Notes: generated by a model from the letters alone, not told the origin. Positions 2,490 through 26,109 are shown, counted from the stretch's first letter. The stretch: DNA of 44,049 bases from Craspedostauros australis (GCA_030167865.1 JALAGF010004118.1:62001-106049), one strand, 5' to 3'. A program made the numbers and translations.

Positions 2490-2514
2490 AGAGAGAGAGA
2501 GAGAGAGAGAGAGA
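2490..2514. repeat. (GA)n microsatellite in the 5' region of the cyclin-like gene
   Basis: An uninterrupted run of ~12 GA units. Shorter GA/CT runs occur near 5973, 30640, 33563 and 38586. Confidence 0.9.
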
Positions 2515-3093: not shown

Positions 3094-3127
3094 TGATTGA
3101 TGCATTGATTGATGCATTGATTGATAC
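3094..3127. repeat. 12-bp minisatellite (TTGATTGATGCA) x~3 upstream of OXA1
   Basis: ttgattgatgca ttgattgatgca ttgattgata, read directly. Confidence 0.8.
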
Positions 3128-5861: not shown

Positions 5862-6673
5862 TTTTCGTTGGAATTAGAGGGTGGTGTTGGATGGATGGGT
5901 CGATGTTGTTGTGGCTACTCTCCACTGATGTTGCTGATGGTCTTTCTTGGTGAGGTGGAGATGGTCATGGAAGAGAGAGAGAGAGACGTTGCGCCGCTTC
6001 GTTGGGCTTGTGGTTCTCAACGGCAAAAAGACTGCACAGCTCAAAATTGGTTTTCGGCCACCTCCGCCGCAATCGAACGCAAAACAACGACTGAATCGTT
6101 GTGTGTTGCGTAGATTGCCACGTGGAGGCTCGTGATATCTATGTGGTGGGACTGAAAAAGAACAATGGATCACGAGTCCAACAGAAGCAAAAAGAGGATG
6201 AACGATGATCTGCAGAGATGTGGTGGGATCCAAAAGAAGCAACCACGAGGCGCCAGCATGGGTGCCCATCACAGCTGCGTGTGGCTCGTATCCCACAACG
6301 AACTTGCCATTCATTCACCTCCATTCCACAATTCCGCAGCTGTTGTTCTGTTCCCACAACGCTGTCAGCACCAGTGTCTCAACCACTACCAGCACATTCG
6401 CACAATACGCTCGTGCAATACCAACCACATTGCCAGGACCATCAATCGATCGACCGATCTCCACGTGTCCATCGTCGCCACCATCTTGGTGCACTCTTGT
6501 GTGAGGCAACCCCCATCGCGCAAGGGAAAGCTTGGAAAGACAGCTGGATCCTCTGCAGAGAACAACTCGGTTTCTGCCTCCAAACCCGTTCACCCAAGCA
6601 GCATTCAACCAGAGTGAATCCGGAGGAACAGACACTCGGCACACGCTTGCTCCACAGATCATATTCGTCGACC

Positions 6674-9600
6674 ATGATGCGGCAAGGATCGCTTCACCGA
6701 GGCACTCGCCGAGGTCTGAGTTCGATGTTGAAGCTCACGCTGATAGCGTCGGTTCTCTTATCATCTCTCCTCTCTTCAACGACCACCAGCACAAGCAGTG
6801 GCACTAGCACCGCCATGGGCATACCATGCTTAGCATCAGCCTTCAAGCCAATGTTGCAACCAAGGATACCGCTCACCAAATTTCCAACTTTGCTGGTGCG
6901 AGGTGGCGATGCCGGCAGCACGGCCAACGAAAAGGACCTGCCCACGTCCACTCACGATGACGATGAAGACAAGGGCAACAGCGAACGTAATGGCGATGAG
7001 GAACGCAACGATGTTGGCGTTGACAAGGACGACGGCGACGATGACGGCCTTGATGGCACCAAGAACGCCAGCGAAGAGGACGACAAGAAGAAGCATTCCA
7101 GCGTCGAAGACTACGTGGCCGCCATGAAAGCCAAAGACGAGCAACAGCAACATCATCAACAGGATGATGATGCATCTCATTCCGAGTCTCAAACTCAGCA
7201 ATCGTCAAACAAGGATGATACCGAGCCCACCCACGATTCGAATGGAGGCGATCGCAACGATTCATCAGCGCCGCAGTCACATGCAGACTCGGAGCCATCG
7301 AGCAGCGACAGCAAAAAGAGCAGTGACGTGGCGGATGATGCCTCCGTCGGCGTCAAGTCGCACAAGAAGTCAAATGCAGTCGGCGACGCGGACGGCGACA
7401 GCGACGACGATGATGACGAGGATCCGGATGACAGCGACCTGTCATCAGACTTCAGCGAAGAGTGGGAAGATCTCGACGATCTTGCCCCACATCATCGCGC
7501 ATCACAGCAGTCTCGCAGTGATCAGCAGGATCTTCCAGATGACAGCTACATCATCGAACCGGAGGTGCAGCTTGAAGTCGAACTGTTGCAGAGCACCATT
7601 CCCGCTGCTGGCACTAGCAATGCGGTCAACGAAGATGCCGGCACTCGCAGCAGCGAAACGCACGACAACAAACACAGCGATGCGTACGGCAACGACGCGG
7701 ATGATGATGGCGACGAGACTGTTGCCGCCTCATCCTCATCCAAGCCCTCCAGAGCTGCCAGATCGGGTGGCGTCGGGATTCGTCTCGGGCGAGGCCGGCG
7801 GAACAGTCGTCAACGTGGCAAGAACTCAGAACGCAAGCGCCGTTCGCAGGAAGCTGTTGCGGATGACGACGATGTCAAACTGATCGAGGCCTGGATGCCC
7901 CACCTGTACTTTCCACCACGCGACAGCACCCTGTCCTACCTCGCAGACAATGGACGCATGATCGATGCCGCCTCCAAGTCACGACTGGACAGACGAACAT
8001 TGTACGGCAGCTTGCTCATGGAATGGGGATGCTCCCCGCAATCCTCGCGCAGGTCGGGTGGAGCGCGCAAGTTCTTTCCGCACAAGACGACGCAGGAACT
8101 GCAGGCGGCACTTGCCGTCGCGACGCAGCCGCACTGGCGCAAAGCTACACCGCGCACCAACGGTATCATGATGTACACTGAGCTTGACAACAAGGACAAG
8201 AACAAGCCCATGACATTGAGCATGCAGGAAACTGTGGCCATGTCTTTGGTAAGTTATGCACGAGTGATGCCGGAATCGTAACCGCGAAAGCACCTATCGT
8301 ACAGATGGAACATAATGCTCTCGTTCGATGCCAACTAACACTATTCCGCTTGTCGTTTCATTTCAATTCATGCCTTTTGTTGGTGAATGGTTCTTCTGCC
8401 GATGTCGCATTTGGCGCTTACACGATTGATCACGCACATGCGCATTCCAAACAAACCTGCACAGGCACACTCAATGGGCTGCGGCATGCTCATCCTGGAT
8501 GATCAAGTGCTGAACAAAGTGCGGCAGAAGATGGTCGAAGCAGGCGTGAGCGACGGCAAGTTGAAACCTGCTTCACTGTTGAAAACTCTGCTCAACGCAG
8601 CAAAGGCAGGCAAGGTTGCGCAACCACCGACGGCACGAGCCACTGCCTCCATCTCATCGTGCATGCGGCACGACATGTCGTGTGGTCTGGACGATCAATA
8701 CGACGAACGGGCCATCGTCAGTATGGAGGCCATGGTGGAATGGGAGGCTGCAGAAACGAAAGAAGATACGAAGGCCAACGCATCCGAGGACAACGCATCT
8801 TTGCCACTCCCGCTGGTGATCTTCATCCGCACGTCGTCATCTGGCTCCTTGCTCAAGAGCAAGACCGCCATGGAACTTCTCATCCACGAGTGCACAGCCG
8901 ACGACAGTATCCATCTCGTCACGCTCGGCAAGGGCATCGACGAGTGGACCGATTCATTGCCACAGAATCGGAACAGCCACAGTGAGGTGGGGCAAGGACA
9001 GGATATGAGCGGTTCCTTGGGCCAGACGCCTTTCGACAACGTGGGAGGTTCCAACGGCAACAAACAAGGACAGTTTGGCTTCACTTCCCAACACAACAAC
9101 GCGTCAGGACAGAACGATCCACCTGGTTCACGCCGGTTCAACATTTTCCTGTCCCGCACAACCGACGCCAACGGTCATCTTGGAATCTTTGGTGCAATCG
9201 CGCCGCCTCAGGTCGGCAACCTGTTCCCCCACATGATGGCCATGCAGACGCGCGAAAAGCTGGAGCGACAGCACATTGAGAATTCGCCAGCCAAGGAAGA
9301 GCTGGAACGGTGGCAGAGGATGATGGAGCAGCAGCAGGAGGGGAACGATCACATAGACCCCACCCAAATGTCCTCCGTCCGCTTCTTCAACGCTAGCCTG
9401 TCCATCGGGTACCAAGACCAAAACGAAGACGAAGGCAGCCGCAACTCGCGCAGTGAGCAGTACGATGAGCAGCACGATGATCAAGATCAGACCGGCTTCC
9501 AACCGTGGGCGCATCCGCCACCGCATATCGTGGAGAAGGCATTGCAGCACTCGATGTCATGGATATTGGACGATCTATCGCAAATTGGCAAGGACGAGCG

Positions 9601-12062
9601 CGACGAGAGATCGGAGCAGCCTCCAAACGTCGTTTCACCCAAAGATCTGTCTCCCGATTTCCACACGGCGTTTGCGCAGGTGTTGCGAACCGAGAATCTC
9701 CGTCGTGGCATCGCCGAGAATTTGTCGCGTGCCGCACCAGCACTCTCTGATCCCAAATGCCATGGCATCATGCTCAGCATCTTCGTTCCGCCGCAGGGCA
9801 CCGGACAAAGAGGAAGGATGCCCACGGCACCGGGCCAAGGCAACAACAACGGCAACGCGCCGAACAACTCCAACATGAACGGTTGGTTCAACGAAGTGTT
9901 GCAAAGCCAGGACAAGGAGCGCAGGGATGCAGTCGCCGACTCCGATGACGGCAGCGACGAGGAAGAGTCGGCCAAGGACCGGCAAAAGCGAGTGAGAACC
10001 ATGGCAGCGGCTGCGGCTGTGATGGCGGCCAACCAGGCCCAGACGAACGACGCCCGTGATCGGGCCAAGTCATCTGAAAACAAAGCCGAGCGCAACCTCG
10101 CCAAGCTGGAATCCATCTGCCGTCCGATCGATATTGACGTCCCCACAGACCCTGTGCGTGCCAAGTCATGGGAGGCGTGGATCAACCGAGAGCGTGGGTC
10201 CATCGTGTTCCGCATGAATCGGCGGGCGCTCAGCGAAGAATTGATCCAGCATATGCTGGCCTTGGAACTGCACACGGGTACGCGGGGCGCGGGTTCTGCA
10301 TTGCGCCAAATGCTCAGCGTCCGCGATTTGGAGTCGGACATGGACAGAATCGTCCGATGTGCCGTGGAGCTGGAGGCATCCAAGGGTTTGAGGAAGCACG
10401 AAATGCCAAACACCGCCCACGAGAATGACCTGAAGCTCCAGATCGACGAGTCATTGATTCAATTGAATCTCAATGTTGACGATGACGAATGCGGACCTGA
10501 TGGTACTCAAGGAGGTACTTCTGACAACAGTGACGGAGCCACAGAAGCCGCGTCAACATCAAGCACGGGAACAGATACATCCGAACAACGCGATGACGAC
10601 AAGCAAGATGCCAAGTCGGGGCCATCGAATTGGCAATACCTCCACCCATCCAGTTTGGAGTCCGCGCTGACGATGGTTTGCCAGATCAGTCCCTCTCCAG
10701 CAGGAGGTCTGTCGCTTTCCGGTTCCATTGCCGGGGCTCACCGCAGCCGAGACGAAATCTCGAACCTGGCGCAGGACAAGCACGAGCGCGCCTTGGTTTC
10801 GCAAGTTGTCTCGCCGCAGGACATTGGCGTCACGTACGACATGATCGGTGGACTCTCGCAGGTGAAGGAGCTGTTGCGACAGAGCATCACGTACCCGCTC
10901 AAATTCCCGCATCTCTACAGCGAAGGTATTGCGCGAGAAGCAGTGAAAGGAGTCCTGTTGTTTGGGCCACCAGGTAAGTTGGTGCTGCTGCTATTGCTGC
11001 TGCTATATTTGTGTGGGCTTGCTCTGTTGTGCTCTACTCCCTTGACCACAACGTGCTGAGGGAACATGCCATAAAACTCGCGCTTACACTTGTTGAGAAT
11101 GACCTTGTGGATTTGCTGCCGACCCGATGCCATCCTGCTCGCGCGCTGCCTTGTTGTTGATGCACACGCACAAACGGATGCACATGTGGATACGAATGCT
11201 CGACCGCATTGCATCACGCCATGACCTTGTGTGCGCATCACATTGCGTCACGATAGGTACGGGTAAAACGATGCTCGCCAAGGCCGTCGCAACAGAGGGC
11301 GGCGCAAGCTTCTTGAGCGTCGATGCCTCCTCGGTGGAGAATAAGTGGCTCGGAGAGTCTGAGAAGAATGCCAAGGCCGTCTTCACCCTCGCACGGCGAT
11401 TGGCGCCATGCGTGATCTTTATCGACGAGGTGGATTCTCTGCTCTCCAGTCGAGAGGGCAGCTCCGATGATTCGGCGCACGGCACGTTGACAAGCGTGAA
11501 GACGACGATGATGAGCGAATGGGATGGACTGAACTCCGGCACCAACGGAAACGGCGAGGCTGGATCCGATCGCGTGGTTGTGATCGGATCGACCAACAGA
11601 CCATTTGATCTGGACGAAGCCGTGTTGAGACGATTCCCACGCAGAATCCTCGTGGATCTGCCAGACATGCAGAGCCGCAAGGAGATCCTGGAGGTGACGC
11701 TGGCGGAAAATCGTCTGGATCCTGCAGTGAACCTGACGGAGATCTCGGAACGCCTGGATGGCTACACAGGATCCGACATCAAGGAGGTGTGTCGAGAGGC
11801 GGTCGTGCAGATCAGCCACGAGCAGGCCAAGCTGCTGGATCAAGGATTTCTGGATGCGGAGGAAGATATCACGGAGGGTTCGCTGCAGCGACTACGACCT
11901 GTGACGACGGCAGACTTTGAGAGTGCGCTGACCAAGCTCAAGCGCAGCGTTTCGGAGAAGGGACGCGAGCTGGCGCGGGTGTGGGAATGGAACGACGAGT
12001 ACGGTGAGATCAAGAAAGAAAAGACGAACAAGATGCCCCATCTCATGAACATGTACCTGTAG
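6674..12062 (+). CDS. Large AAA+ ATPase of the Msp1/ATAD1/spastin clade (plant-type long form), 3 exons (6674-8248, 8465-10973, 11257-12062; ~1629 aa)
   Basis: The spliced Walker A reads GPPGTGKT. Also present: pore loop NKWLGE, Walker B IFIDEVD, 'MSEWDGL', 'TNRPFDLDEAVLRRFPRR' and C-terminal 'WNDEYGE'. The exon 1/2 junction gives 'QETVAMSLAHSMGCGMLILDD', resembling the degenerate first module of plant long AAA proteins. The start may instead be ATG 6677 or 6725. Confidence 0.88.
8249..8464 (+). other. Intron 1 of AAA ATPase (phase 0)
   Basis: GTAAGT donor at 8249 and ACAG acceptor ending at 8464. Both flanking ORFs share a frame. Confidence 0.8.
10974..11256 (+). other. Intron 2 of AAA ATPase (phase 1, interrupts Walker A)
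   Basis: GTAAGT donor at 10974 and TAG acceptor ending at 11256. Splicing rebuilds GPPG-TGKT. Confidence 0.93.
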
Positions 12063-12930: not shown

Positions 12931-15900
12931 ATGGCGTCTCCGGAACACTCGCAATCGTACTCGGATGACGACGAAGTCGATGATGGACAGAGCTACGATT
13001 CGGACGAGAGGAGCTTCTACACGGACGAAGAAGGCAGTCAGGCATCGCGGCGTCGGCGGCGGCAGCAGCAAGCGAAGCGGCATCCGGAGGATGACAGAAG
13101 TGATGCATCCGGCAGCTACGATAGTCGTGGTTCCGAAGGATCCTTTCAGGATGGCGATCGATCGTACTACGATGATGACGATCGATCGTACCGCAGCGAC
13201 GACGACAGATCGTACAGAAGCGGCGATGATAGATCGTATCGCAGCGAAGACGACGACAGGTCGTACCGAAGCGAGGATGACGATCGATCGTACCGAAGTG
13301 GCGACAGCCGATACGACGATGGTGGCAGTCGGGGCTCCCAGTCCTTCCGAGATAGCGAGCGGTCGTTCCATAGCGGAGACGATTCGCAGCCGTCGCCCAG
13401 ACGCGCAAGCAAGGATGACGAGGACTACGACGAAGATTACGACGACGAATTCGATGACGATAGCTTTGCCAACGATCGAGGCGACGACAGATCTCAGGGC
13501 AGTTACGACAGTCGCGAAGACGACTACGACGATGACGATGGCAGTAGACGGCGAGGTGGGCCCGCGAAGAACGATAGTGGCAAGAAGAGCGGCGGCAGCG
13601 AGAAGGAAAAGGGCGAGGGCATGAAGAAGGGAGATGATAGCGCAGGATCCTTAGACATCAACGCACCGTCATTCCATGACGACAATGAGGATTCGTTCGG
13701 AAACGAGCACTCGTACGGAGATGATCGTTCGGACAGAAGCGATCATCCCAGAGAAGACATGAAGGAATCGCAGCACTCGTCCTACCACTCTCGCAATTCG
13801 GGGCGCGACAGTTACCACAGCCGCAGCAGTCGAAGCGGAGCAAGAGACCGCGATCATGATGACGACCGCAGCGACCGGGACTGTCCAGATGATCAGTCTG
13901 ACGCCTTCGACGACGACGACGACCGATCCTATTTCGATGGTAGCGAAGACAGCGAGTCTCAGCAGTCGTTTGCGACGGATGAAGACGAGTTCCTGGCGAA
14001 TGCGCGCGACAGGAAAGCTGCAAGTCCCACGGGGAGTAGCCGGCGGCGTGATGACGAGGATGGCGCAAGTGATCGCGACCGTGATGCCAACGACAACGGC
14101 GATGGCGATGACAGATTCGATAGCCGGCATTCAGCTGGCTCCTTTGGAGAGGAATCGTACGGGGACGAGGACTCTCGATCTGGCCGAGACTTTGCCAGCC
14201 CGAAGCGAGCAGATGAAGGCTTCCATGATGGCAGCGATCGATCGGATTCACGCGGAAGCAAGTATTCGGATCGTGATGACTCTTACCGAGATGACGGGAG
14301 CTTCACGTCAAATCGAAGCCTCAGCAAGCAATCCCATGCATCTGGTCAAAAGACAGCGGAAGCTTCGCACGAGGACGGCGTGCATAGTTCCCATCGCTCA
14401 TTTGCAGACGCCAGCAGCAAGGGTCGTTACGAAGATAGCTACCACAGCGAAGAAGATAATGAGGCTTCTCGCAGCGAACGCAACGAAATGCCTCGTGATA
14501 ATGACCCGTTCATGGGATCTGGCACCTCCTTCAGTAATGCCAGCTTTGGTGGCAAGAAGAACGACTCTGTGTTCCAAAAATCACCAGAGGCCTCCAATCA
14601 ATCAAGCGCCGATTCCGACGGTTTCGGGACACCTTCTGCTACCAAGGCGGCGCAGATCGACGGCGATGATAGCAGTCGAGGGGATGACTTCGATTTCGGC
14701 GCGAAAGATGGAGGGTTTGGTGATGATGCAGCCTTCCCAACGAACGCAAGCTTTGGTGATTCAGAACACACAGAAGACGAGGACGGCAGCAAGGGTGATA
14801 ATGGCATGGGCAAAAGCGAAGGAAGCAGCAGCAACCACGATGGCGACGCCAGCGATGCTGACCACAGCGACGACGATGATGCATTCCGGTCCACGAACGA
14901 TGACTTCGCAGCGCCAGTCAAGACGCATGAAGATAGCGACGACGATTCTGCATCAGCTGCCAAACCTGACGCCGATGCTTTTCAATTCGGAAACGATTTC
15001 GATGATGGCGCGTTTGACGACGATCCCTTCGGTAGTGCCAGCGAGAATCAAGACCAGCGCAACGGTGACAACGATGGTGAGGATGAAGCCAAAAGCAAGA
15101 GCAACGGCAATGTGGCGAAAGACGACGGTCAACAGAATGGGTTTGGTGCCACCGACTTCTCTAGCGCTGGATTTGGGAGCGATGCGTTCTCGGATGCGTT
15201 CGATAATGACCCCTTCGCAAATGCCGATGAAAAGAAGAACGATACAGACGAGATGAGTGGTCGTGGCGGCAACGACGGCGATGATCCCTTCGGGAAACAG
15301 TCAGATGACGACTTCTTCTCCAAGAGCGGGTCACAGGCGTTCGGCACAGAAGGCGATTTCTTTGACGACAAGAAGCAAAATGACGATCCTTTCGCGAACG
15401 ACGATTTCGCATTCGACGATGCTTTCGCCGCAGAGCCGGCCAAGACAACTGCGCCTGATGCGAGCGACCATGACAAACCTGAGGAAGATGACCAATCTGA
15501 GCAAGACGATCAGCCCAGTCCTGAAGACGTGCCCTCGAATGCTTCTGAATCTCACTCCGCAGGTGATAACAGCTTCTCGCAGCACATGGATGAGGATTCA
15601 TTGGCAGAAATTGACAAGGACGATGCGTCGCCGCACAGGGTCCGAGAGGAAGATGATGACAAGGCTGATCACAGAGTCGACGACGAAGCCAGCCAATACT
15701 CAGATGACTACGACAAAAAGAATGACGAGAACGGCGACGACAGCAACAAGGGCCCCGAAGGCGACCACGCCCATGACTCCTCCCCAAAAGGCAAGCAGAT
15801 TGAACAACTCACGCCGCCCACAGATGTTGACGATGGAGGTGCGTCTCCTGTGGAAACGACGGAAGAAACGGACGTCATCTCGCGAGGCTCGTCAAGATCG

Positions 15901-18900
15901 TTCGATTCCTTTGACGACAGACAAGGCAGCCGCGGACCTTTGGAAGGCGACGATGCGTCATTCCAGTCCTCTCGTTATTCACAGGATGATCGATCGGGAA
16001 GGAGTCAAAGATCTCACTCGCATTCGCACTCACACTCGCAGTCCGATTACTCAAGATCTCAAGATTCCAGAGACCAATCGAAGTACGATCAGGAAGGAGA
16101 ACGAAGACATCATGATGATCACCGCAATGATCATGACGACGATGGCGGTAGCGCATATGTCGATGAGGCTTCTTACCATTCCTCTGATCGTTCCTCGTAC
16201 CAGTCCAGATCGCATTCGGGATCGCAATCGTACGTGAATTCCCCTTCGCAGCGATCTCGTGACGCATCACCACACCAGTCACCGTCACAGCAGCCTCAGT
16301 CTCGATCTCAGTCCCCAGTGTCACGCAGTTCGCGTGGTTCGAAGTCGACTTACTCTCAGCAGCAAAATAGCGCCGCGGCTCCGCCGCTTTTGCCGTCACC
16401 TCGCGATGATTCGTCGGCGGATGACGACTCCAGTTTCAAGCTCGAAATGGAACCCGAAGAGCCAGATGAAGACTTGGAGACCTCCATTCGTCTCGGCGAA
16501 GTATTCGGAAAGCCAAATGATTTCTTTGATGACCAAAGCCGCGACAGCACGGAGGCAGACGATGCTGGCGAACTTGAGGAGGTGGAACCCGAAAACCAAG
16601 ATACTGAAGTTGACGGTGGCGACGAAGAGGACGAAGACAGCCCCGAAAAAAAGAGGAAGCCCATTGATGACGATGAAGTAGAAGAAGAAGGCGAATTTGA
16701 TGACGAGACGCGGCAGTCAAGATCTTCATCTCAATATGACGAGGTGCAGCGGCCTGAGCAACGACCGCAGACTCAGGACTCTGTTGGTTCATCATATCAG
16801 TCCAAGGGCACGTATCTGTCAGCTGAAGATTCAAGGGATAATCTTCCGCAAGGAAGCCAAACGTACAGTGACGGGGGACACGACAAGAACGATGCGACAT
16901 CTTCGCGCTACGAAGACAGCTACGAGAATAGCTACGACGATGCTTCGCGGTACTCATCAAAGTACAGTACTGCAGAATACACTGAGCAAAGCAGAGAGAC
17001 GGACGTAGAAACAGCGAGCAGGAAGAGTTCAAGAAGTTATCGATCACGAGGCAGCGACAGCGTATCCCGCTCAAGCTCGAAGAAGAGTAGGAGCAAACAC
17101 AAAGGCAAAGGGAAGACCAAACGACGCAGCAAGCCTTCACCAGGTCGCGGATCTAATGAAAGACAAGATGCTTCCGTCAATGCTTCCATCAATGGATCTG
17201 TGTCAGCAGTGCCATCGGGACAGGATGATACCAGCGTTGATGATGTCGAGTTGGCATCAGTGGAAGAAGATTCTCGCGAGATGATCGAGGACGGAGACGC
17301 GCCGCTGCATGCAGATTACTCCAACGGCAGCGAGTACGAACAGTCCATTCCACAACATGCCGAAGGTGATGGCGACGAGTACGGGACTGAAGACGATGAC
17401 AGGAGTGCGAGTGCGAGTGCGAGTGCGAGCAAAAGCCGTAGCAAGAGCAAGAGCAAGAATGCCAGCCGTTCGGGGAGGAGCAGTGATTCTCGAGCAACCA
17501 GCATGTACTCGATGGAGTCTGAGCTGCGGGAAGCATCGACGATGGACTCCCAGGGTCTTCTCGCGGCGTCTGCTGAGGATGCGCACAGCTACGTTTCAGG
17601 TGGTCGCTCGACGAACGACGCAACTGCATCCATCGCGAAGTCCTCAAAGTCATCCAAATCGAAGAGACGGAAGAAAAGAAGGAAGAAACGCAGCAATAAG
17701 AGCGAAGCGTTGATCAGCCTATCGGAGAATATCCACGAGACGATGTTGGTTATGGAGGAGGAAGCAGAGAACAAGAGCGAGTACTCCGGATCGAAGAATC
17801 AGAACGAAGACAACGAGGCACATGACCTCCTGCACAGCTTCGATGCGTTGCTTGTGGTGCTCGATCAACTGTCTGATGAACTCGAGCTGATATCCACGTT
17901 CGGGAAGTCAAAGAAGAAGAAGAACACGAGCGCGCTTGTGTCCGTTCAGGCCCTCGAGGCGGTCATTAGCTTTGATCACGTCCTCGATGAGATTTACGAC
18001 CAACTGCGACGCATCATCGAGGACTGCTTTATCGACCCACCAGATGATGAGATGGCTGACATGCTGAAACGGCTGACTGCCCTCGTGGATCTTCTGAACG
18101 AAACAACCCACAGGGTGGGAGAGAAGCAGGAATGGAACACGAGAGCGGAGACCGTGTACGTGACGCTCATCGAGCTGATGGAGAGAGAGTCGCTGGAGCT
18201 GAACTGTTACTTCGATGAGCAGGAAACTCCTGACTACGAGCTTTCGGATAGCATCTACGAGGCATGGCAGCGGTCGGAGAACAGGATGGAGCTCGACCAA
18301 TTGATGCATGCTGCCGAGCTAATCGATTTCCGCCAGATTTGCTACGAAGTGCTCATCACCATGGATCAATGGTGCCCGGATACCGATATCCTGATGGACA
18401 TCTGTGCCATTGATCCATCTCTCCTCGAGGAGGATCCCATCGACTTCTTGCCGGAGGAGGAGTTACCAGTCATCCCCGAGGCAGCGGAGAATATCCTTGA
18501 TCAGATCAACGGGGATCCGCTGCCGAGGCCGAGAGTGATGGCCAGCATCCTCCGCCGGATCCTCCCACCACGAGCCGTCGTTGACAAGACCGTCCTGGAT
18601 TACTTCACAAGCATCCGAAATACTCTCGATTGCCCCCTCGACCTTCCCATGACCAATGTCGTATCGATCACCTCAGTCCCCGAATCCTTGGACCAAGCCG
18701 ATGCGCTGGGTGTCGGAGGCGTGGGCAAGTCGACTTTGGCTGCCATGGTTGCCGCACGAGAGGATGTTCGCAATTACTTCGAGGATGGTGTGCTCTGGGT
18801 CTACGTTGGGGATACGGAGCTGAACTACAAACGCTACACGCAATGTTTGACGGAGCTGATCTCACAGCTGGATTCCCAGAACTACCCGCTTGTTTTTCCG

Positions 18901-21900
18901 GAGCTCATCCACACACCTGGCGAGCCAATGACGAAACGACGTCGACGGGAGGCTGGTTTCATGATATTTGCAAGGGACACAGTCGCCAGCATCCTCAAGG
19001 ACAAGTGCGTCTTGGTCATCCTTGACAACATCTGTTTCGAACCCGACCTGAGTTGGTTCGACTTCACCGCCTTGCCCGATGACGGTGTCGAGGACTTCGA
19101 ATCAGTCTGTGCGATTGTGGCAACCACGCGATATCGCGATCTCCTCGGGGCTGCTGATACCGTTGAAATCGACATGTTCGACGAAGCCGACGCAATCAGC
19201 CTTTTCATTGAAGAATCGGGCGATCTCTCCCACAGCCTGTTGGCAGAATCGAAGAAGGCGAGACAGATCGTTCAAGAATGCGCGAATCACCCCCTGACCG
19301 TAAAGAGCGTCGGCCGTTGGTTACATGCGAAGCACATGTCGGCTGGCATCGTGAGCGGGATCGACGAAATCCACGAGATGCTCGTGAAGTCGTCGGATTC
19401 TCCTTCCGCAGGTGATCAGGCATCGACTGACATGCTGTACGAGGTCCTGAAGCTCAGTCTATCCCCAGATGTGAATGGCAACCTAACCATTGCCGTCAAG
19501 TTTTGCCTGGCATCCTTCGTCACGGTTTTCTGCGCGAAGGAGTACGTGTCGGACTACAACCTCGTGGAACCAACGCCGCTCATACCAACGCGGATGATGG
19601 AACTGCTATTCGAGACGCTGCTGGAGCTCAACGAAAGCTCGTTGCTGAAGGAAGGCAGCCTGTTCTCGAGCCAGAAAGAGTCGGCGCGAGCTATCGTTCC
19701 GACAGCACTATGCTCGTTGGGCGTTCTGCAGCTCCACAACTTCCCCTGGTCCACGGATGGAGAAGTTCAAGAAATCCACGAGTTTTACCAGATCACTCAC
19801 TTCATCTACCAGGAGTACGGAGAATACCTGTGCAACGAAGACGAAACGCTGACGTACATCACCAAGAACGCGGAACGCGAATGGAACCGAGCATTCGTCG
19901 ATGCCTACCTGGCCGAGGTCGAGGCGTGGAATGACAACATCGACGACCCTGGCCATTCGTACGCGCTCGAGATGATGGTGGCGCACATGATCCGCGGTGG
20001 CATGCACAAGGAGGCCGCCGGTCTGCTGGCGAACAAGAAATTCGTGCTGGGGCGGTTGCTCTCCTTTGGTCGCAGGGTGACGACATCGAGGCACATCAAG
20101 GACTGCGAGCTGCTGTACAAGGTCCTTGTGGAGCACCCCGGCAAGGGCCAAGCCCGACTCGAACCTCGCAAGGTGATGAAGCAAGCGTACCGAACGCTCG
20201 GTGGTTTGCTGGCCTTCAACGATGAAAACGACACTGAAGAAGAGCTCATGCAACGCAATGACGACATCGCGTGGTCTCATTATGAGATTGGATTTTCATT
20301 GGCCGAGAAACGGTGCTGGGATGCTGCCATCGCACACTGGGAAACGAGCCACGAGCTGTTCCTGTCCACGAAGGGGCCCGTGGAGCTCGTTGCCGGCATC
20401 CACTACAGCATTGGCGTCGTTTACGCCGAGATGAACGAGTACGAGAAGTCCCTCGATTCGCTCAAGAAGTGCTTGCGGATCCGTGGCACGATCCACGAGG
20501 AGAATCACAGCCTGTACGCCCTCACGATCCAGAAGATCGGCGACGTGTTCCTTGGAATGAGCGACTACTACGAGGCGATGGAAAGCTACAAATGGGCTCT
20601 GGACATCATGTACAAGGAGCCCAGCTTGCACCGTGACCACATGGGCGACATTCTCGACAACAAGGGCGTCATCCACAAGAACAAGGGCGAGAACGAGGAG
20701 GCGTTGAAGTGCCACGAGGAAGCGCTGCGGTCGAAGCAGATCGTGTTCGGCCAGGAGCATCCTGAGCTGGCAGTCACTTACGCGCACATTGGCCGCTGCC
20801 TGTCGGACAGCGGCGAGAGAGCAAGCGCCATCAACCATTACGACGAGGCCATCCATTTGCTGGAGCTTGACCCCGAAGGAGGGGCAGAACGCGACGCTGA
20901 AATCCAGGCGATCGAAGGTATGCTCTACAATCTGGAAGAAGACGAGGAGATGAGCGTGAAGTGTTACGAGAAGGCTCTGCAGATCCTCGTCATGAAGGTC
21001 CCGTACCGGAAGGAGAAGATCGCCTCTCTATTGCATGTGATCGGCTGTATCTACCTGAAGCGTGGGGAAGCGCGCAAGGCCATGAAGCTGTTCGAGGAGA
21101 GCCTGCAGGCACGGCGCAAGGTGCTGGGCTTCGTTCATCTCGACGTCGCCAACACTCTGTTCGTGATGTCGTATCTCCACCAGACGCGCAACCGCGTGGA
21201 CAAGGCGCTGAAGTGCCTGGAGGAGGCTCTCAAGATCCGGCAGCTGCGACTGCCGCGCAGCGAGAAGGTGGCCGTCACGTACGCCAAGATCGGGACGTTC
21301 GCCAAGGAGATTGGCAAGACCCGAAAGGCGGAACGAGCCTTCAAGGAGGCGTTGAAGATCCGCACCGAGCTGCACGGCGAGAAGCACGAGGATGTGGCAG
21401 AGATCAACCAGGAGCTCGGAGATCTGATGAACGAGCTCGGCGAGTACGAATCGGCGATGGAGAACTACATGAAGGTGTTCCAGCTGCGCACGGAGCAGCT
21501 CGGGTCGGATCACATCCTGGTTGCGGAGACCTTGCACAGCATGGGCTTCACATTGCACCATCAGGGCAAGACGGATCGTGCCATCGGGTGCTTCAAGGAG
21601 AGTCTGGTGATTCGCGCGTACTACCACGGCGAGGATTCATCCGAGGTGGCAGAGACGCTGAACATGCTGGGCTTCCTCACGGCCAAGAAGGGAGATCTGA
21701 ACGACGCCATGACCTTCCTGTGGGACGCGCTGCGCATCCGCAAGCGCCACAACGACGAGATCCGTGTGTCGGAGACTTTGAAGAACATTGGCAACACCCA
21801 CCGCGAGAAGAAGGAGTTCGACCTGGCGTTGGAATGCTACGAGAAATGCCTCCAAATCCGCCGCACGGAGCTCGGTGATGATCACGAAAAGGTCGCCGAC

Positions 21901-22527
21901 GCGCTGATCGCCATGGGTAACATCCAGAACGTGATGAACCAAACGAACGAAGCCATGCGGTCCTTCCAGGAGGCGCTGAAGATCCGCACGATGCTTTTCG
22001 GCGAATACGACGAAAGCGTGGCCTTGGTGCTGCAGTACATGGGCTTAATTGAGTTCGCCGCCGGCAACCACGAACGCGCACGTGACCTGCTGACGGAGTT
22101 CATCCGCATCCGACGCGACAATAACAACCGCGACGACGGCGATTACGTGAACGTGCTGTTCACGCTGGGCAACATCCACAGGGTGACAGGCAACGAGGAG
22201 GAGGCCATCGCGAGCTGGACCGAAGCGCGCGAAGGATTCAAGGCGCAGGGCCTGGAAGAGTCGAACCCCAAGACGGCCAAGATCATGAACCATCTGCTGC
22301 AAGCCGACATGAAGGACGAGGAGGAGGACGACAAGAAGAAGAAGAAGAAGAAAAAGAAGGGCTCGAAGAAGAGCAACGCCAAAGCCAACGGGATGTTCGG
22401 AAAGGTGTCCACGAAGATGAAGGACACTAGCGCCAAAGACGACAACAAGCGCAGCGGACGCAGCAGCAACAAGAACAAACCGAAGAAGAGGAAGAAGGCC
22501 AAGAAGGGCAAGGGAATTCAACTGTAG
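12931..22527 (+). CDS. Giant NLR-like STAND NTPase: ~1590-aa D/S/R-rich disordered region + helical domain + APAF-1-type NB-ARC + ~16 TPRs + Lys-rich tail (3198 aa, apparently single exon)
   Basis: Uninterrupted ORF with first ATG at 12931. Walker A GVGGVGKST (18709-18735), RNBS-A-like 'VRNYFEDGVLWVYVG', Walker B 'VLVILDNI', sensor 'IVATTR', GxP motif 'CANHPLTV', and APAF-1 helical-domain-like 'YALEMMVAHMIRGG...LLANKKFVLGRL'. Kinesin-light-chain-type 42-aa TPRs run from ~20263 to ~22240. Confidence 0.88.
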   Translation: MASPEHSQSYSDDDEVDDGQSYDSDERSFYTDEEGSQASRRRRRQQQAKRHPEDDRSDASGSYDSRGSEGSFQDGDRSYYDDDDRSYRSDDDRSYRSGDDRSYRSEDDDRSYRSEDDDRSYRSGDSRYDDGGSRGSQSFRDSERSFHSGDDSQPSPRRASKDDEDYDEDYDDEFDDDSFANDRGDDRSQGSYDSREDDYDDDDGSRRRGGPAKNDSGKKSGGSEKEKGEGMKKGDDSAGSLDINAPSFHDDNEDSFGNEHSYGDDRSDRSDHPREDMKESQHSSYHSRNSGRDSYHSRSSRSGARDRDHDDDRSDRDCPDDQSDAFDDDDDRSYFDGSEDSESQQSFATDEDEFLANARDRKAASPTGSSRRRDDEDGASDRDRDANDNGDGDDRFDSRHSAGSFGEESYGDEDSRSGRDFASPKRADEGFHDGSDRSDSRGSKYSDRDDSYRDDGSFTSNRSLSKQSHASGQKTAEASHEDGVHSSHRSFADASSKGRYEDSYHSEEDNEASRSERNEMPRDNDPFMGSGTSFSNASFGGKKNDSVFQKSPEASNQSSADSDGFGTPSATKAAQIDGDDSSRGDDFDFGAKDGGFGDDAAFPTNASFGDSEHTEDEDGSKGDNGMGKSEGSSSNHDGDASDADHSDDDDAFRSTNDDFAAPVKTHEDSDDDSASAAKPDADAFQFGNDFDDGAFDDDPFGSASENQDQRNGDNDGEDEAKSKSNGNVAKDDGQQNGFGATDFSSAGFGSDAFSDAFDNDPFANADEKKNDTDEMSGRGGNDGDDPFGKQSDDDFFSKSGSQAFGTEGDFFDDKKQNDDPFANDDFAFDDAFAAEPAKTTAPDASDHDKPEEDDQSEQDDQPSPEDVPSNASESHSAGDNSFSQHMDEDSLAEIDKDDASPHRVREEDDDKADHRVDDEASQYSDDYDKKNDENGDDSNKGPEGDHAHDSSPKGKQIEQLTPPTDVDDGGASPVETTEETDVISRGSSRSFDSFDDRQGSRGPLEGDDASFQSSRYSQDDRSGRSQRSHSHSHSHSQSDYSRSQDSRDQSKYDQEGERRHHDDHRNDHDDDGGSAYVDEASYHSSDRSSYQSRSHSGSQSYVNSPSQRSRDASPHQSPSQQPQSRSQSPVSRSSRGSKSTYSQQQNSAAAPPLLPSPRDDSSADDDSSFKLEMEPEEPDEDLETSIRLGEVFGKPNDFFDDQSRDSTEADDAGELEEVEPENQDTEVDGGDEEDEDSPEKKRKPIDDDEVEEEGEFDDETRQSRSSSQYDEVQRPEQRPQTQDSVGSSYQSKGTYLSAEDSRDNLPQGSQTYSDGGHDKNDATSSRYEDSYENSYDDASRYSSKYSTAEYTEQSRETDVETASRKSSRSYRSRGSDSVSRSSSKKSRSKHKGKGKTKRRSKPSPGRGSNERQDASVNASINGSVSAVPSGQDDTSVDDVELASVEEDSREMIEDGDAPLHADYSNGSEYEQSIPQHAEGDGDEYGTEDDDRSASASASASKSRSKSKSKNASRSGRSSDSRATSMYSMESELREASTMDSQGLLAASAEDAHSYVSGGRSTNDATASIAKSSKSSKSKRRKKRRKKRSNKSEALISLSENIHETMLVMEEEAENKSEYSGSKNQNEDNEAHDLLHSFDALLVVLDQLSDELELISTFGKSKKKKNTSALVSVQALEAVISFDHVLDEIYDQLRRIIEDCFIDPPDDEMADMLKRLTALVDLLNETTHRVGEKQEWNTRAETVYVTLIELMERESLELNCYFDEQETPDYELSDSIYEAWQRSENRMELDQLMHAAELIDFRQICYEVLITMDQWCPDTDILMDICAIDPSLLEEDPIDFLPEEELPVIPEAAENILDQINGDPLPRPRVMASILRRILPPRAVVDKTVLDYFTSIRNTLDCPLDLPMTNVVSITSVPESLDQADALGVGGVGKSTLAAMVAAREDVRNYFEDGVLWVYVGDTELNYKRYTQCLTELISQLDSQNYPLVFPELIHTPGEPMTKRRRREAGFMIFARDTVASILKDKCVLVILDNICFEPDLSWFDFTALPDDGVEDFESVCAIVATTRYRDLLGAADTVEIDMFDEADAISLFIEESGDLSHSLLAESKKARQIVQECANHPLTVKSVGRWLHAKHMSAGIVSGIDEIHEMLVKSSDSPSAGDQASTDMLYEVLKLSLSPDVNGNLTIAVKFCLASFVTVFCAKEYVSDYNLVEPTPLIPTRMMELLFETLLELNESSLLKEGSLFSSQKESARAIVPTALCSLGVLQLHNFPWSTDGEVQEIHEFYQITHFIYQEYGEYLCNEDETLTYITKNAEREWNRAFVDAYLAEVEAWNDNIDDPGHSYALEMMVAHMIRGGMHKEAAGLLANKKFVLGRLLSFGRRVTTSRHIKDCELLYKVLVEHPGKGQARLEPRKVMKQAYRTLGGLLAFNDENDTEEELMQRNDDIAWSHYEIGFSLAEKRCWDAAIAHWETSHELFLSTKGPVELVAGIHYSIGVVYAEMNEYEKSLDSLKKCLRIRGTIHEENHSLYALTIQKIGDVFLGMSDYYEAMESYKWALDIMYKEPSLHRDHMGDILDNKGVIHKNKGENEEALKCHEEALRSKQIVFGQEHPELAVTYAHIGRCLSDSGERASAINHYDEAIHLLELDPEGGAERDAEIQAIEGMLYNLEEDEEMSVKCYEKALQILVMKVPYRKEKIASLLHVIGCIYLKRGEARKAMKLFEESLQARRKVLGFVHLDVANTLFVMSYLHQTRNRVDKALKCLEEALKIRQLRLPRSEKVAVTYAKIGTFAKEIGKTRKAERAFKEALKIRTELHGEKHEDVAEINQELGDLMNELGEYESAMENYMKVFQLRTEQLGSDHILVAETLHSMGFTLHHQGKTDRAIGCFKESLVIRAYYHGEDSSEVAETLNMLGFLTAKKGDLNDAMTFLWDALRIRKRHNDEIRVSETLKNIGNTHREKKEFDLALECYEKCLQIRRTELGDDHEKVADALIAMGNIQNVMNQTNEAMRSFQEALKIRTMLFGEYDESVALVLQYMGLIEFAAGNHERARDLLTEFIRIRRDNNNRDDGDYVNVLFTLGNIHRVTGNEEEAIASWTEAREGFKAQGLEESNPKTAKIMNHLLQADMKDEEEDDKKKKKKKKKGSKKSNAKANGMFGKVSTKMKDTSAKDDNKRSGRSSNKNKPKKRKKAKKGKGIQL
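13156..13300 (+). repeat. Coding tandem repeat, 5 x (D/E/G)DDRSYRS
   Basis: Five DDRSYRS units are read directly in the translation, with different synonymous codons in each unit. Confidence 0.9.
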
Positions 22528-23601: not shown

Positions 23602-26109
23602 ATGGAGGGACTTTTCGAATCCATCACAGAATCAACTACCTGCTTTGCATCGCACGTATCGGTGGACGTCCGATCTGCCGTCGCCTGCTTTCAGCCTTCG
23701 AACGTGCTGACGGACGTGTGGATGATGTCGATGATGTCGATGGCGGTCGGCCTCTGGTTCGTCTTGCTCATGCTTCAAACCAACGCTCTTTTGGCATGGA
23801 CCGGATCAGCCAAACCTGTGGATACGAGCACGGCCGCATCGAGCGATGATTGCGTTCGGGACGACTACGCTCGTTTCGATAATCGCCTGAGCCAGGAGCA
23901 TATCTCACCGACGAGGACACCATCTGAAAGCACAAGCTCCTCGGAATCATCATCAATCACGAATGAACCTCAGTCTGCCCAGAGGCCTTCACTGCTCGAG
24001 AGCCTCAGTAGAGGCAGCATACGACTCTCCAGAGATGGAAGCAACGTGATTCGATCGGCGAACAAAGAAACAGACAGCTTCTACATCAATAATCTGAAGG
24101 GCAATGAAAACGTCGACAGCTCCGTCAATCATTTCAGCGGCACGTCCGGTTTCTGGGATGACTTGGTGCCCGGCCTCCTGGCACAAGATATGGCCAGGTT
24201 GCACGAATCCTTCTCCGGCGTCCTGAATGACAATTATGATTCCGATAACAAAGACGATCCGCCCGACATCGACGCCGATACCTCCGACGCCATCCATTTG
24301 CACCGACCCACAGCAACTCATTTCTGCTTCCTCATTCACGGCCATCGCGGCGTCGCACGGGATCTATGGTACATGGAGATGGCCATGCGCAAATTCGCCT
24401 CCATCCAACGAGATCAGCAAGAGCAGGCGCGCAAAAAGCGGTATGATGCTATGAAGCAGGCGGGGATGAATGCAACCAACGAAAGCCTGGACGATTGCCC
24501 GCTGCATGACATGATTGTGTATTCCACCGTCTGCAATGAGGGCAAGACAACGGACGGCATTGAGAATGGAGGCGAGCGCTTGGTGCGGGAGATCAACGAG
24601 GTCATCCTCAAGAAGATGCGAGAACGGCATCCTACAAAGGTGGACGGCAGCAGTTGCGCAGTTGCAGATTTGCATGATGTCACCATCTCCATCGTCGGCA
24701 ATTCCCTGGGAGGCCTGTACGCACGGTACTCCATTGCCACATTCACGCAACGATATTGCGAACAGCCTGCTTCGGATGAGACAGTGTTGCGCATGAAGGG
24801 CACGGACCTGCGCATCCACCTCAACATATTCTGCACGACAGCGACGCCCCACTTGGGCGTGTCGCGCCATACGTTCTTGCCGATTCCAAGATCCGCTGAG
24901 ATCGGCGTGGCGCATGCGATGGGCGAGACGGGACGCGATATCTTCCGTCTCAATACCCTCCTGCGGTCGATGTGCACCAGCTCTGCGTACCTGGACACTC
25001 TGGGCAGCTTTCGCAAGAGGACCGCCTATGCCAATGCCTACGGGACCGATTTTCCCGTTCCCACATCCACGGCGGCATTCCTGTCGGGGCAATCGAACTA
25101 CCCGCATTACTTCGTGGATGCCGCAGAGAAACAAGAAGCCCAGAGCAAGGATTCAGCCAGCGAGTACATCATTGCCACTTTGGAAACACCAAGGCAGTTC
25201 AAGACATCATCGCCATCGTTGTCTACTCGGAGCTCAAGCTCGCGCTTTCGATCGAACTCGGATCACAGCAGCAGCAGTAGGAGCAGCGCACTACAACCAC
25301 ATCAAAACGATGATGACGATGATCAGGACACTGCGCAAAGCTCGGATGAATCCGATGAATTGCGGCAAATGTCCGAGTGTTTGGATCAGCTCGGTTGGAA
25401 GAAGGTCTTCCTGGACATGAGGAGGGAGCTGCCGTCGATGGAGATCCCCAAGTCTGTTGCTCGCGTCATCCTGACGGGCAAGAAGCAGCTGCATCAACTG
25501 CAGCAGCAACAACAATCTCGACGAGCCAGCAGTTATGCGAGGGCCGGTTCTGGACGCGGCCTCCTATCCCTGTTGCAACAGGACCAACAGCAGCAAGAAG
25601 ATGCAAGCACGTCAAATCGCGAAGACGAGGAAACGAAACAGAAATCAAACGACCCCGTTGCCGATGATGACATCGTGGACAGCGATGAGAAGAGCAACCG
25701 CCGTTTGGATGCGCTGAGACACACAGGGATCGCGCAGTCGAAGGACCTGGCCAACGTCGTCTCGTACCAAAGCGACAACCGGCTCTACGTTCCCGTCGGA
25801 CACAACATGATGGTTGCATTCTCACGATCGCGACTGAGCTCATTCCTCCACATGGGCGGCAGACCCGTGGTCGATTCCTTGGCCCGGGATGTGATCAGAG
25901 ATATATTCCTGTGGTCTTCCGCTGCCAGCGACAGTCAGATACCTTCCGCGCACCACAGCCAAATGTTTCCAGAATCTGCAACCGCCAAAGGCGATCGTGA
26001 AAGTGACGCGAGAACCGACGGCCCCATCTCCTCCCCAAAGAGCCAAAGGCCATCCCCGCCATCCAAAGAAACGTCAGGCTGCGAACATGACGGAGTTGTT
26101 GCCGACTGA
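23602..26109 (+). CDS. DUF676 (ROG1/FAM135-like) alpha/beta-hydrolase, putative lipase, with N-terminal hydrophobic anchor (835 aa)
   Basis: 'FLIHGHRG', 'KTTDGIENGGERL', nucleophile elbow 'SIVGNSLGGLYARY' (GxSxG at 24697-24711), 'TATPHLG', 'ETGRDIF', 'YANAYGTDFPV' (Asp) and 'VGHNMMV' (His). The TM-like segment 'MSMAVGLWFVLLML' lies near the N-terminus. Confidence 0.87.
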   Translation: MEGLFESITESTTCFASHVSVDVRSAVACFQPSNVLTDVWMMSMMSMAVGLWFVLLMLQTNALLAWTGSAKPVDTSTAASSDDCVRDDYARFDNRLSQEHISPTRTPSESTSSSESSSITNEPQSAQRPSLLESLSRGSIRLSRDGSNVIRSANKETDSFYINNLKGNENVDSSVNHFSGTSGFWDDLVPGLLAQDMARLHESFSGVLNDNYDSDNKDDPPDIDADTSDAIHLHRPTATHFCFLIHGHRGVARDLWYMEMAMRKFASIQRDQQEQARKKRYDAMKQAGMNATNESLDDCPLHDMIVYSTVCNEGKTTDGIENGGERLVREINEVILKKMRERHPTKVDGSSCAVADLHDVTISIVGNSLGGLYARYSIATFTQRYCEQPASDETVLRMKGTDLRIHLNIFCTTATPHLGVSRHTFLPIPRSAEIGVAHAMGETGRDIFRLNTLLRSMCTSSAYLDTLGSFRKRTAYANAYGTDFPVPTSTAAFLSGQSNYPHYFVDAAEKQEAQSKDSASEYIIATLETPRQFKTSSPSLSTRSSSSRFRSNSDHSSSSRSSALQPHQNDDDDDQDTAQSSDESDELRQMSECLDQLGWKKVFLDMRRELPSMEIPKSVARVILTGKKQLHQLQQQQQSRRASSYARAGSGRGLLSLLQQDQQQQEDASTSNREDEETKQKSNDPVADDDIVDSDEKSNRRLDALRHTGIAQSKDLANVVSYQSDNRLYVPVGHNMMVAFSRSRLSSFLHMGGRPVVDSLARDVIRDIFLWSSAASDSQIPSAHHSQMFPESATAKGDRESDARTDGPISSPKSQRPSPPSKETSGCEHDGVVAD

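Follow-up and report, generated by a model that had tools for sequence, protein, structure and literature searches.

Proteins that join an NB-ARC nucleotide-binding module to tetratricopeptide repeats (TPRs) are known in bacteria, fungi, animals, and brown algae. In the brown alga Ectocarpus, a stramenopile like the diatoms, an NB-ARC is followed by C-terminal TPRs with a 42-residue period, and the source describes 24 loci, half of them clustered, with high rates of birth and death, shuffled repetitive TPR exons (42 aa each), and diversifying selection (PMC3341825). Fungal NOD-like receptors (NLRs) of the NB-ARC/NACHT-TPR type carry an N-terminal helical module, SesA or HeLo-like, ahead of a nucleotide-binding oligomerization domain (NOD) and TPRs, in large and variable repertoires whose repeats are highly conserved and fast-changing (PMC4986451). 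For the alga Ulva, the published account reports a conserved NB-ARC subfamily with APAF1_C and WD40 repeats that is no R-gene expansion and has no obvious null phenotype (PMC8891106). In diatoms, NB-ARC domains have been noted in silico (cited in PMC5599023). In this study, we examined a window of 44,049 nucleotides from Craspedostauros australis (GCA_030167865.1 JALAGF010004118.1:62001-106049; coordinates below are 1-based positions in this window). On its + strand, at 12931..22527, an uninterrupted coding frame of 3198 codons plus stop encodes a protein of ~358 kDa, in which a long acidic N-terminal arm, a conserved N-domain, an NB-ARC, and a TPR array follow one another. Our findings support a model where this protein represents, in this species, a group of signal transduction ATPases with numerous domains (STAND) of the NB-ARC class that has been inherited vertically across the diatoms, and where it acts, on balance probably, as a switch for an endogenous cue in stress or cell-fate signaling, with the arm as a regulatory appendage.

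Set against the published descriptions, the diatom gene differs from the Ectocarpus family in being one uninterrupted frame, in occurring once per named diatom, in having the TPR array as its most conserved domain, and in carrying an arm of 189-2495 aa. With the Ulva subfamily it has in common that it is algal and conserved rather than expanded like R genes; yet the Ulva proteins belong to the green lineage, carry WD40 repeats, and lack a disordered region. The preliminary description of this locus, made from the sequence, had regarded the architecture as undescribed. We likewise found no published description of the family, the arm, or the N-domain in the full-text literature outside subscription journals and supplements; the relatives themselves, however, are already in public sets, where they are labeled only generically ("NB-ARC domain-containing protein," "tetratricopeptide repeat protein," "kinesin light chain"). 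What is new is the combination of the canonical tripartite plan with an N-domain of no known family and a presumably disordered N-terminal arm able to exceed the structured part in length.

A Diatom-Wide, Vertically Inherited Family

A word-seeded search among proteins of 1758-5597 aa gave 77 matches from 7606 candidates. Seventy-six were strong (E <= 1.5e-131; 1806-4082 aa; 32-62% identity over residues 1590-2500), and the 77th was a weak NB-ARC match. The orthologue survey suggested in the preliminary description thus returned 76 full-length relatives, and its view of the genome as diatom-like is borne out by the organism names among them, which are all diatom. The named relatives come from Nitzschia inconspicua, Cylindrotheca closterium, C. 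fusiformis, two Bacillariaceae metagenome-assembled genomes (MAGs), Fistulifera, Mayamaea, Epithemia, Amphora, Grammatophora, Attheya, and Odontella, with Pseudo-nitzschia multiseries among the shorter matches; the 13 organism labels, diatoms throughout, each appear once. The window protein has no identical match, the best reaching 62-64%, so its own species is absent from the sets searched. An exhaustive HMMER pass over 1.84 billion representatives recovered only 268 proteins at E<=1e-3, 54 of them at E<=1e-30. Sixteen shorter matches are mostly from contigs of a few kb or from truncated models, and they do not demonstrate an arm-less form of the orthologue.

A FastTree phylogeny of 164 NOD regions, which gave long-branch warnings for distant rows and was used for two groupings only, separated 90 giant sequences from all others by a branch with support 99, and set 20 shorter proteins (the P0103 group, 1300-1580 aa) apart, also with support 99. 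The named taxa come in the order centrics, araphid pennate, raphid pennates, and the window protein falls inside a clade containing Bacillariaceae, where its end branch is long (0.59; median 0.16). Because each label occurs once and the tree follows diatom phylogeny, we take the group to be diatom-wide and vertically inherited, from centric to raphid pennate lineages. Conservation is uneven along the protein: mean pairwise identity among the 77 sequences (window protein included) is 0.70 in the TPR array, 0.63 in the nucleotide-binding domain (NBD) plus ARC1, 0.56 in residues 2177-2455, and 0.52 in the N-domain. The TPR array is therefore the slowest-evolving domain, the opposite of a diversifying sensor.

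Beside the giant group stand P0098-P0128 and the P0103 group, paralogous, diatom-like NB-ARC-TPR proteins of 1300-1580 aa without the giant arm. In these paralogues the first Gly of the P-loop is often absent, and a basic insert between Walker A and Walker B is held in common with the family. Outside the eukaryotes, a collection of bacterial and archaeal genomes yielded only four weak NBD matches, at 24-26% identity. One of these, an 871-aa NB-ARC-TPR protein from a Verrucomicrobiaceae MAG, has the same two-module architecture as the diatom core, as has AfsR; unlike the diatom proteins, the bacterial ones have neither the N-domain nor the disordered arm, and with four loci in the collection they are few. 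Among the PADLOC defense models, the window protein matched TPR models alone and no defense STAND model.

Domain Organization of the Conserved Core

The NB-ARC (NBD plus ARC1; residues 1926-2176, 18706..19458, + strand, as for all features of the gene) is recovered by PF00931 at E 5.6e-16, with 59-62 bits against a curated cut-off of 23.5, and the same model matches 11 of 16 family members or fragments. The preliminary description had named an NB-ARC with an intact P-loop, which agrees with this HMMER-Pfam result and with the GxxxxGK[ST] motif at residues 1927-1934 (18709-18732), whose Lys and last Gly are kept in 77/77 sequences. Walker B starts at residue 2028 (19012-19029), its first Asp again being invariant (77/77). 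A T-T-R triplet at ~2065-2067 (73, 59, and 69 of 77) and an h-P-L triplet at ~2120-2122 (75, 72, and 76 of 77), the latter coinciding with the GLPL region of plant proteins when the profile is aligned to PDB structures, complete the set; we take them to be the motifs named Sensor-1/RNBS-B and GLPL, respectively.

The second acidic position of Walker B departs from the family rule in the window. There the residue is Asn 2033 (codon AAC, 19027-19029), where the family has Asp in 73/77, Asn in 2, and Gly in 2. The codon is one transition away from GAC; a real change that slows hydrolysis and a sequence error are both possible. If real, the Asn may slow ATP hydrolysis in this species. In plant NLRs, mutations of the ATP-hydrolysis motifs of the NB-ARC, Walker B included, can autoactivate the protein (PMC8133560).

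Searched against PDB, the family profile matches NB-ARC structures over profile positions ~360-611, that is, NBD plus ARC1. The best are 8zf0 (2.3e-10), 9jbn (5.3e-10), and NRC1 6s2p (1.9e-8), joined by ADR1 8zw9, NRC2, Roq1, ZAR1 6j5t, and Sr35, and then by bacterial AfsR 8k60 (3.2e-6) and Apaf-1 1z6t (2.1e-5); the window sequence by itself gives a single match, 8zf0 at 8.9e-4. These results support membership in the STAND class, of the NB-ARC type. The best solved-structure matches thus lie with plant RPW8-type helper NLRs (ADR1/NRG1) and coiled-coil NLRs, whose likeness extends to an RPW8 cluster that a language model places near a relative's N-domain (see below). Those plant proteins, however, have leucine-rich repeats, and the N-domain likeness is sub-threshold, with no Pfam or PDB sequence match behind it. 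Toward Apaf-1, CED-4, and Dark the resemblance lies in the NB-ARC, in an orthologue kept without expansion of the repertoire, and in a weak APAF1_C-like stretch after the winged-helix position; the diatom protein differs in a TPR sensor where Apaf-1 has WD40 repeats, in an N-domain that matches no family, in its giant disordered region, and in having no CARD by Pfam. Indeed, Pfam scans of the whole protein and of the N-domain found no CARD or death-fold family.

After ARC1, a conserved region (residues 2177-2455; 19459..20295) presumably holds a winged helix and helical domain 2 (HD2). His 2290 (19798-19800), retained as His in 76/77, may be equivalent to the His of the MHD motif, by position only. 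The APAF-1 helical domain announced in the preliminary description corresponds to a weak match of PF17908 (APAF1_C) at 2320-2381, below threshold in the window (E 0.17; 12.2 bits, cut-off 22.8) and seen at E<=1 in 4/16 family members or fragments (best E 0.0015). A transmembrane segment was considered and rejected: 19-residue Kyte-Doolittle windows of at least 1.6 occur only in a conserved stretch inside the ARC2-like region.

The TPR array spans residues 2456-3101 (20296..22233) and is of the TPR_12/KLC/NPHP3 type, with 13 units and 2-3 degenerate ones. TPR_12 matches at E 6.8e-81 in 10 stretches, and an iterative repeat hidden Markov model placed 13 units in 2494-3101 with three unit-sized gaps, giving ~15-16 repeats, in good agreement with the ~16 counted earlier. 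The Pfam scan found no other C-terminal repeat family, such as WD40, and Tandem Repeats Finder (TRF) found no DNA-level tandem repeats in the TPR-coding part. PF24885 (TPR_NPHP3) reaches 126.1 bits over a cut-off of 100, summed over three stretches; because repeat scores add up, this is weak evidence of kinship. NPHP3 likewise has an NTPase followed by TPRs like those of the kinesin light chain (KLC), yet the diatom NTPase is an NB-ARC, and NPHP3_N (PF24883) stays below its cut-off (14.6 versus 24.8 bits). The structures of KLC1/2 TPRs are matched by the family profile at E 5e-7 to 3e-3. At the N-terminus KLC has heptad repeats that bind kinesin heavy chain. Besides TPR_12-type repeats, the diatom protein has in common with KLC an unstructured N-terminus bearing a conserved motif of aromatic, Pro, Asn, and acidic residues, which recalls the LFP-acidic stretch that in KLC binds in cis (PMC6214655); KLC has six TPRs and no NTPase, against an NB-ARC and 13-16 TPRs here, and binding of the arm to the TPRs is, in the diatom protein, an idea only. 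The array is followed by a Lys-rich tail of ~97 aa (residues 3102-3198; 22234..22524), including a 9-codon AAG run at 22333-22359. As a family trait the basic tail was rejected: a K+R content of at least 0.3 in the last 90 aa occurs in 1/77, the window itself.

Between arm and NB-ARC lies a conserved N-domain of 334 aa (residues 1592-1925; 17704..18705). A short conserved helix after a polybasic run comes first, then a variable acidic linker, then a well-conserved, presumably helical core from ~1630 with several invariant Trp, Glu, and Pro, and lastly a Pro-rich linker to the NBD. The helical domain expected at this place is conserved, and its hydrophobic periodicity is of alpha type in 190/320 windows (beta type in 43). 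No Pfam family matched it at E<=10, and the best PDB match of its profile at E<=10 was CheA, at E 0.35. A degenerate TPR was considered and set aside, since hhalign comparisons with the protein's own TPR, HD2, and NBD profiles gave probabilities of 0.1-0.4% (TPR 0.1%). When the N-domains of two relatives (34-60% identical to the window) were placed in a language-model Atlas, the nearest named cluster for both was fungal SesA (0.83 and 0.80), followed by an MLKL-NTD/NB-ARC cluster (0.76) and an RPW8 cluster (0.75). These scores are below the tool's 0.9 line, shuffled proteins reach 0.8 in a third of cases, and by the tool's guidance a family common to just 2 of the 10 best matches is probably wrong. 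SesA, MLKL-NTD, and RPW8 are all N-terminal domains of NLRs, and the likeness is thus suggestive, a lead only; with the fungal proteins outlined above the diatom protein has the order of modules in common, but its N-domain has no sequence-level SesA/HeLo match. The absence of a compact N-terminal module implied by the preliminary description finds no support in view of this domain, which from residue 1713 is common to the arm-less paralogues as well. The P0103 group aligns to window residues 1713-2456 in one high-scoring pair (HSP; 27% identity, E 3e-55) with only ~100 residues ahead; most of the N-domain is therefore older than the giant arm.

The N-terminal Arm

The arm (residues 1-1591; 12931..17703) is D/S/R/G-rich, acidic, and Ser-rich, with low hydrophobicity. 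In bins of 100 aa the fraction of ILVFMWYC is 0.08-0.16 over residues 1-1600 and 0.31-0.41 from 1601 on, charged residues make up 0.27-0.52 of each bin up to 1600, and the net charge of residues 1-1591 is -205. By its composition, the arm is presumably disordered, consistent with the disordered N-terminus of about 1600 aa given in the preliminary description. In 76/76 relatives, the part that resembles the window protein starts at its residue 1592-1636. All 76 nonetheless have an arm, whose length, projected to the junction, is 189-2495 aa (median 925) and whose composition is S/D/E/G-rich with 5-20% ILVFMWC. The arms cannot be aligned; among the 76 relatives, no HSP with the window arm was found at E<=1e-5 with filtering on. 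What the family keeps is of another kind: 71/77 arms are net negative, the median Ser content is 18.6%, and charge is blockier than in shuffled arms (z 8.8 in the window; z>2 in 55/77).

Some short sequence signals recur above this background. The Phe-rich acidic segment at residues 521-870 (14491..15540) holds all 5 DPF triplets of the window and most of its FG dipeptides, along with many DAF and SFA triplets. DPF is enriched in the window (5 versus 0.4 expected) and over the 77 arms (49 versus 11.5), as is FG over the 77 arms (469 versus 212 expected); we take such triplets to resemble the appendage-binding motifs of endocytic adaptors. A short linear motif island at residues 1184-1203 (16480..16539), with the core [LIMV]G[DE][VIA]F[GDE] followed by P-N-x-[LF]-F and acidic residues, matches relatives' arms at 31-38 bits by BLAST, where 10 shuffled arms gave at most 26.6. 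The core pattern is present in 29/77 arms versus 0.0 after shuffling, all 29 in the window's clade, and the island logo was built from 31 instances. More distant orthologues have two other islands, 13-83 residues ahead of the core, one around P-K-P-x-x-Y-G-G-Y and the other Ser/Thr-rich with R-R-x-S-P. The arm ends in a polybasic cluster (residues 1573-1591; 17647..17703) that adjoins the N-domain; a run of at least 7 K/R in 10 residues, at most 40 aa from the junction, is found in 48/77, window included. It resembles either a nuclear localization signal or a site that an Arg/Lys-specific protease would cleave.

The first third of the arms is the richest in Tyr (3.7 versus 1.6-2.0 per 100 aa), and [GS]Y[GS] is enriched over the family's arms (245 versus 122.8 expected; window 3 versus 3.6). 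Within the Tyr-rich first 200 residues of the window protein, TRF identified tandem 27/48-nt repeats (13160..13298) that encode an acidic Arg-Ser-Tyr unit of 9 aa. Y-acidic motifs were no more frequent than composition predicts (window z 0.6; z>2 in 4/77 arms), nor was aromatic clustering in the 77 arms above that level. Condensate or scaffold behavior, of which the preliminary description had considered the arm capable, may be among its properties.

Functional Interpretation

By analogy with Apaf-1 and plant NLRs, the TPR solenoid would hold an ADP-bound NB-ARC closed until a conserved endogenous ligand or partner binds; nucleotide exchange would then let the NB-ARC oligomerize, and oligomerization would gather the N-domains, which would pass the signal on. 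The arm, in turn, may be a fast-evolving regulatory and docking appendage, open to phosphorylation, to localization through its polybasic junction, and to partner or self binding through short motifs; we would read it as other than an effector. The setting is most likely stress or cell-fate signaling rather than the detection of variable pathogen molecules. We favor a conserved role of this kind over that of a fast-changing receptor because each named taxon appears once, the gene tree mirrors diatom phylogeny, and constraint is strongest in the TPR array. In Thalassiosira pseudonana, an NB-ARC-containing TPR protein, related to the present family by description only, was detected at the protein level and changed mildly under nitrogen and phosphorus limitation, as reported in PMC5599023.

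Several considerations weigh against this interpretation. The folds of the N-domain and of residues 2177-2455, like the geometry of the closed and open switch, rest on sequence only, and the gene itself is known here from its sequence rather than from expression, localization, or phenotype. "One copy per species" means one appearance per label in clustered protein sets, in which most relatives are nameless; many relatives are open reading frame (ORF) calls on short metagenome contigs, and the N-termini of such calls may be too long or too short. The long-branch warnings of FastTree and the window's own long end branch count here as well. A conserved sensor could, moreover, be compatible with immunity, by guarding a conserved host target or by recognizing a conserved microbial or viral molecule. 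Finally, if hydrolysis proved dispensable, the Walker B Asn could mean that the local protein is a scaffold, not a switch.

The preliminary description had proposed an immune or signaling receptor, of which the STAND class assignment stands and the immune part fares less well. A pathogen-sensing, NLR-like receptor, whose TPRs would detect a guarded host target or a molecule of viral, bacterial, or oomycete origin, with defense or cell death to follow, seems to us unlikely. It would share the NLR architecture of an NB-ARC with repeats and agree with the plant immune NLRs that head the PDB matches, with the SesA, MLKL-NTD/NB-ARC, and RPW8 clusters nearest to the two relatives' N-domains, and with the brown-algal NB-ARC-TPR genes, which are proposed immune receptors (PMC3341825). 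Yet the single appearance of each named taxon, the species-like gene tree, the small size of the whole family (those 268 representatives at E<=1e-3), and a TPR array that is the most conserved domain, with no DNA-level homogenization of its repeats, describe a gene unlike the expanding repertoires; the bacterial defense models contribute TPR matches only, and the Atlas scores all fall short of 0.9, with a family common to only 2 of 10 best matches probably wrong.

Somewhat less likely again is a scaffold or adaptor independent of nucleotide, in which the TPR array and the motif-bearing arm would tether partners in trafficking, the cytoskeleton, or nuclear bodies, the NB-ARC serving as a structural oligomerization or nucleotide-binding module. 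The TPR_NPHP3 score, the KLC-type likeness of the repeats, the name "kinesin light chain" that one source gives to the Fistulifera relative, the enrichment of DPF and FG in the arm, and the window's Asn at the second Walker B acidic position would all fit, and KLC TPRs are described as binding short aromatic-acidic peptides, the LFP-acidic stretch doing so in cis (PMC6214655). The switch motifs, however, are retained across the family (P-loop Lys 77/77, Walker B Asp-Asp 73/77, MHD-like His 76/77), which suggests a working NTPase in most species; NPHP3_N remains below its cut-off, and the Y-acidic motifs stay at composition level in the window and in all but 4 of the 77 arms.

A further elaboration of the conserved switch, which we regard as improbable, would make of it a self-regulated hub of diatom cell death and stress. 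By analogy with KLC, conserved aromatic-acidic motifs of the arm would occupy the KLC-like TPR solenoid, whether in cis or in trans, and so keep the NB-ARC closed, and the multivalency of arm and solenoid could also drive condensates. An Arg/Lys-specific protease, for example a diatom metacaspase, would cut the polybasic junction and remove the arm, and the freed N-domain, as a helical bundle of the SesA/HeLo-like/MLKL/RPW8 sort, would be gathered by NB-ARC oligomerization and act as executioner, through membrane damage or signaling. If true, programmed cell death in phytoplankton would have in this hub the apoptosome- or resistosome-like component that it has been missing.

To return to the conserved endogenous-cue switch, its interest is that regulated cell death and stress-fate decisions occur in diatoms, for which a conserved STAND NTPase is a concrete candidate pathway component. 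Its candidacy rests on the Apaf-1/NLR class, on retention from centric to pennate diatoms, and on sensor repeats that are the most constrained part, and model diatoms offer orthologues amenable to knock-out. The series of arms from 189 to 2495 residues, in which sequence and length are free while charge, Ser content, the junction motif, and a few islands are kept, makes the role of an arm on a switch ATPase testable.

Gene Model

The frame is open from 12718 on the + strand in the ORF listing; its first ATG, at 12931, is flanked by A at -3 and by G at +4, and the stop codon occupies 22525-22527. Over the first 1591 codons there are no in-frame stops, where shuffles have a mean of 66.8 and a minimum of 39 (zero reached in 0/2000 mononucleotide shuffles), and the other two + frames contain 8 and 142; the single giant frame of the preliminary description is thereby confirmed. 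GC content at third codon positions is 0.57 in the arm-coding part versus 0.77 in the core, and synonymous preferences of the arm run in the same direction as in the core and the neighboring genes, but more weakly. Two alternative + frame ORFs lie within the arm-coding region (13856-15256, 466 aa; 15281-16237, 318 aa), a consequence of the low T content (17%), with just 8 stops in that frame over 4.8 kb.

Residues 1592-3100 are colinear with the 76 relatives, from which the window protein differs by a single 5-aa deletion and by no insert of its own as long as 5 aa; therefore the conserved part contains no unspliced intron. To this extent the gene is intronless, as first described; for the arm, the evidence consists of an open frame and codon periodicity. 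The AAA ATPase gene upstream has an intron, so the genome has introns, which makes an uninterrupted frame of 9.6 kb notable. One relative, P0039 (listed sources "uniref,mmetsp"), aligns in a single HSP over window residues 1549-3126, across the junction of arm and core, with 376 residues preceding. If MMETSP denotes a transcriptome project, P0039 has its arm and core on a single transcript. Met 1605 was considered as a conserved internal start and rejected, since it is Met in 38/77 only and otherwise V, I, or L. The open frame, its asymmetry among frames, the presence of an arm in 76/76 relatives, the junction HSP of P0039, the islands, and the shared charge together support the arm as a real part of the protein, whose presence is conserved in the relatives.

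It is accordingly very improbable that the gene model is an artefact, with an untranslated or separately encoded acidic region and a true start near the conserved domain: the T-poor composition that makes stops rare in two + frames (the second open for 466 and 318 codons), the lower third-position GC of the arm, and the Met at 1605 would allow it, but in-frame stops are absent, islands are conserved inside the relatives' open arms, P0039 with "mmetsp" among its sources crosses the junction, and Met 1605 is not kept. The observation of a giant NB-ARC-TPR frame with a long acidic N-terminus is thus confirmed.

Genomic Surroundings

The window is eukaryotic and gene-dense. Scans found no tRNA or Rfam family in it, and six ORFs (248-687 aa) match none of the Pfam families at E<=1e-3: 1115-2419(-), 6218-8281(+), 27389-28465(-), 35539-37410(-), 37457-38344(-), and 42328-43074(+). 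Upstream of the giant gene are an Oxa1/Alb3-type insertase gene and, at 8387-12062 (+), an AAA ATPase gene. In the latter, a GPPG P-loop breaks off at the end of a long low-complexity ORF, with AAA, AAA_lid_3, and Vps4_C continuing from 11127; a short intron splits the P-loop of what is a single gene with a long non-globular N-terminus, and its best PDB matches are the D2 domain of Cdc48/p97, Afg2, Msp1, and katanin. Downstream, 1.07 kb away, 23602-26109 (+) encodes a DUF676 putative serine esterase of 835 aa, for which PDB gave no sequence match at E<=1e-3. Lipase-like sesB alpha/beta-hydrolases serve as N-domains in fungal NLRs (PMC4986451); the adjacency of the DUF676 gene may be due to chance. 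Farther on, a ribosome recycling factor gene at 30672-31697 (-) has a 174-residue N-terminal extension ahead of its RRF domain, which is what a copy targeted to an organelle would be expected to have. PDZ, thioredoxin, and GGACT genes also lie downstream.

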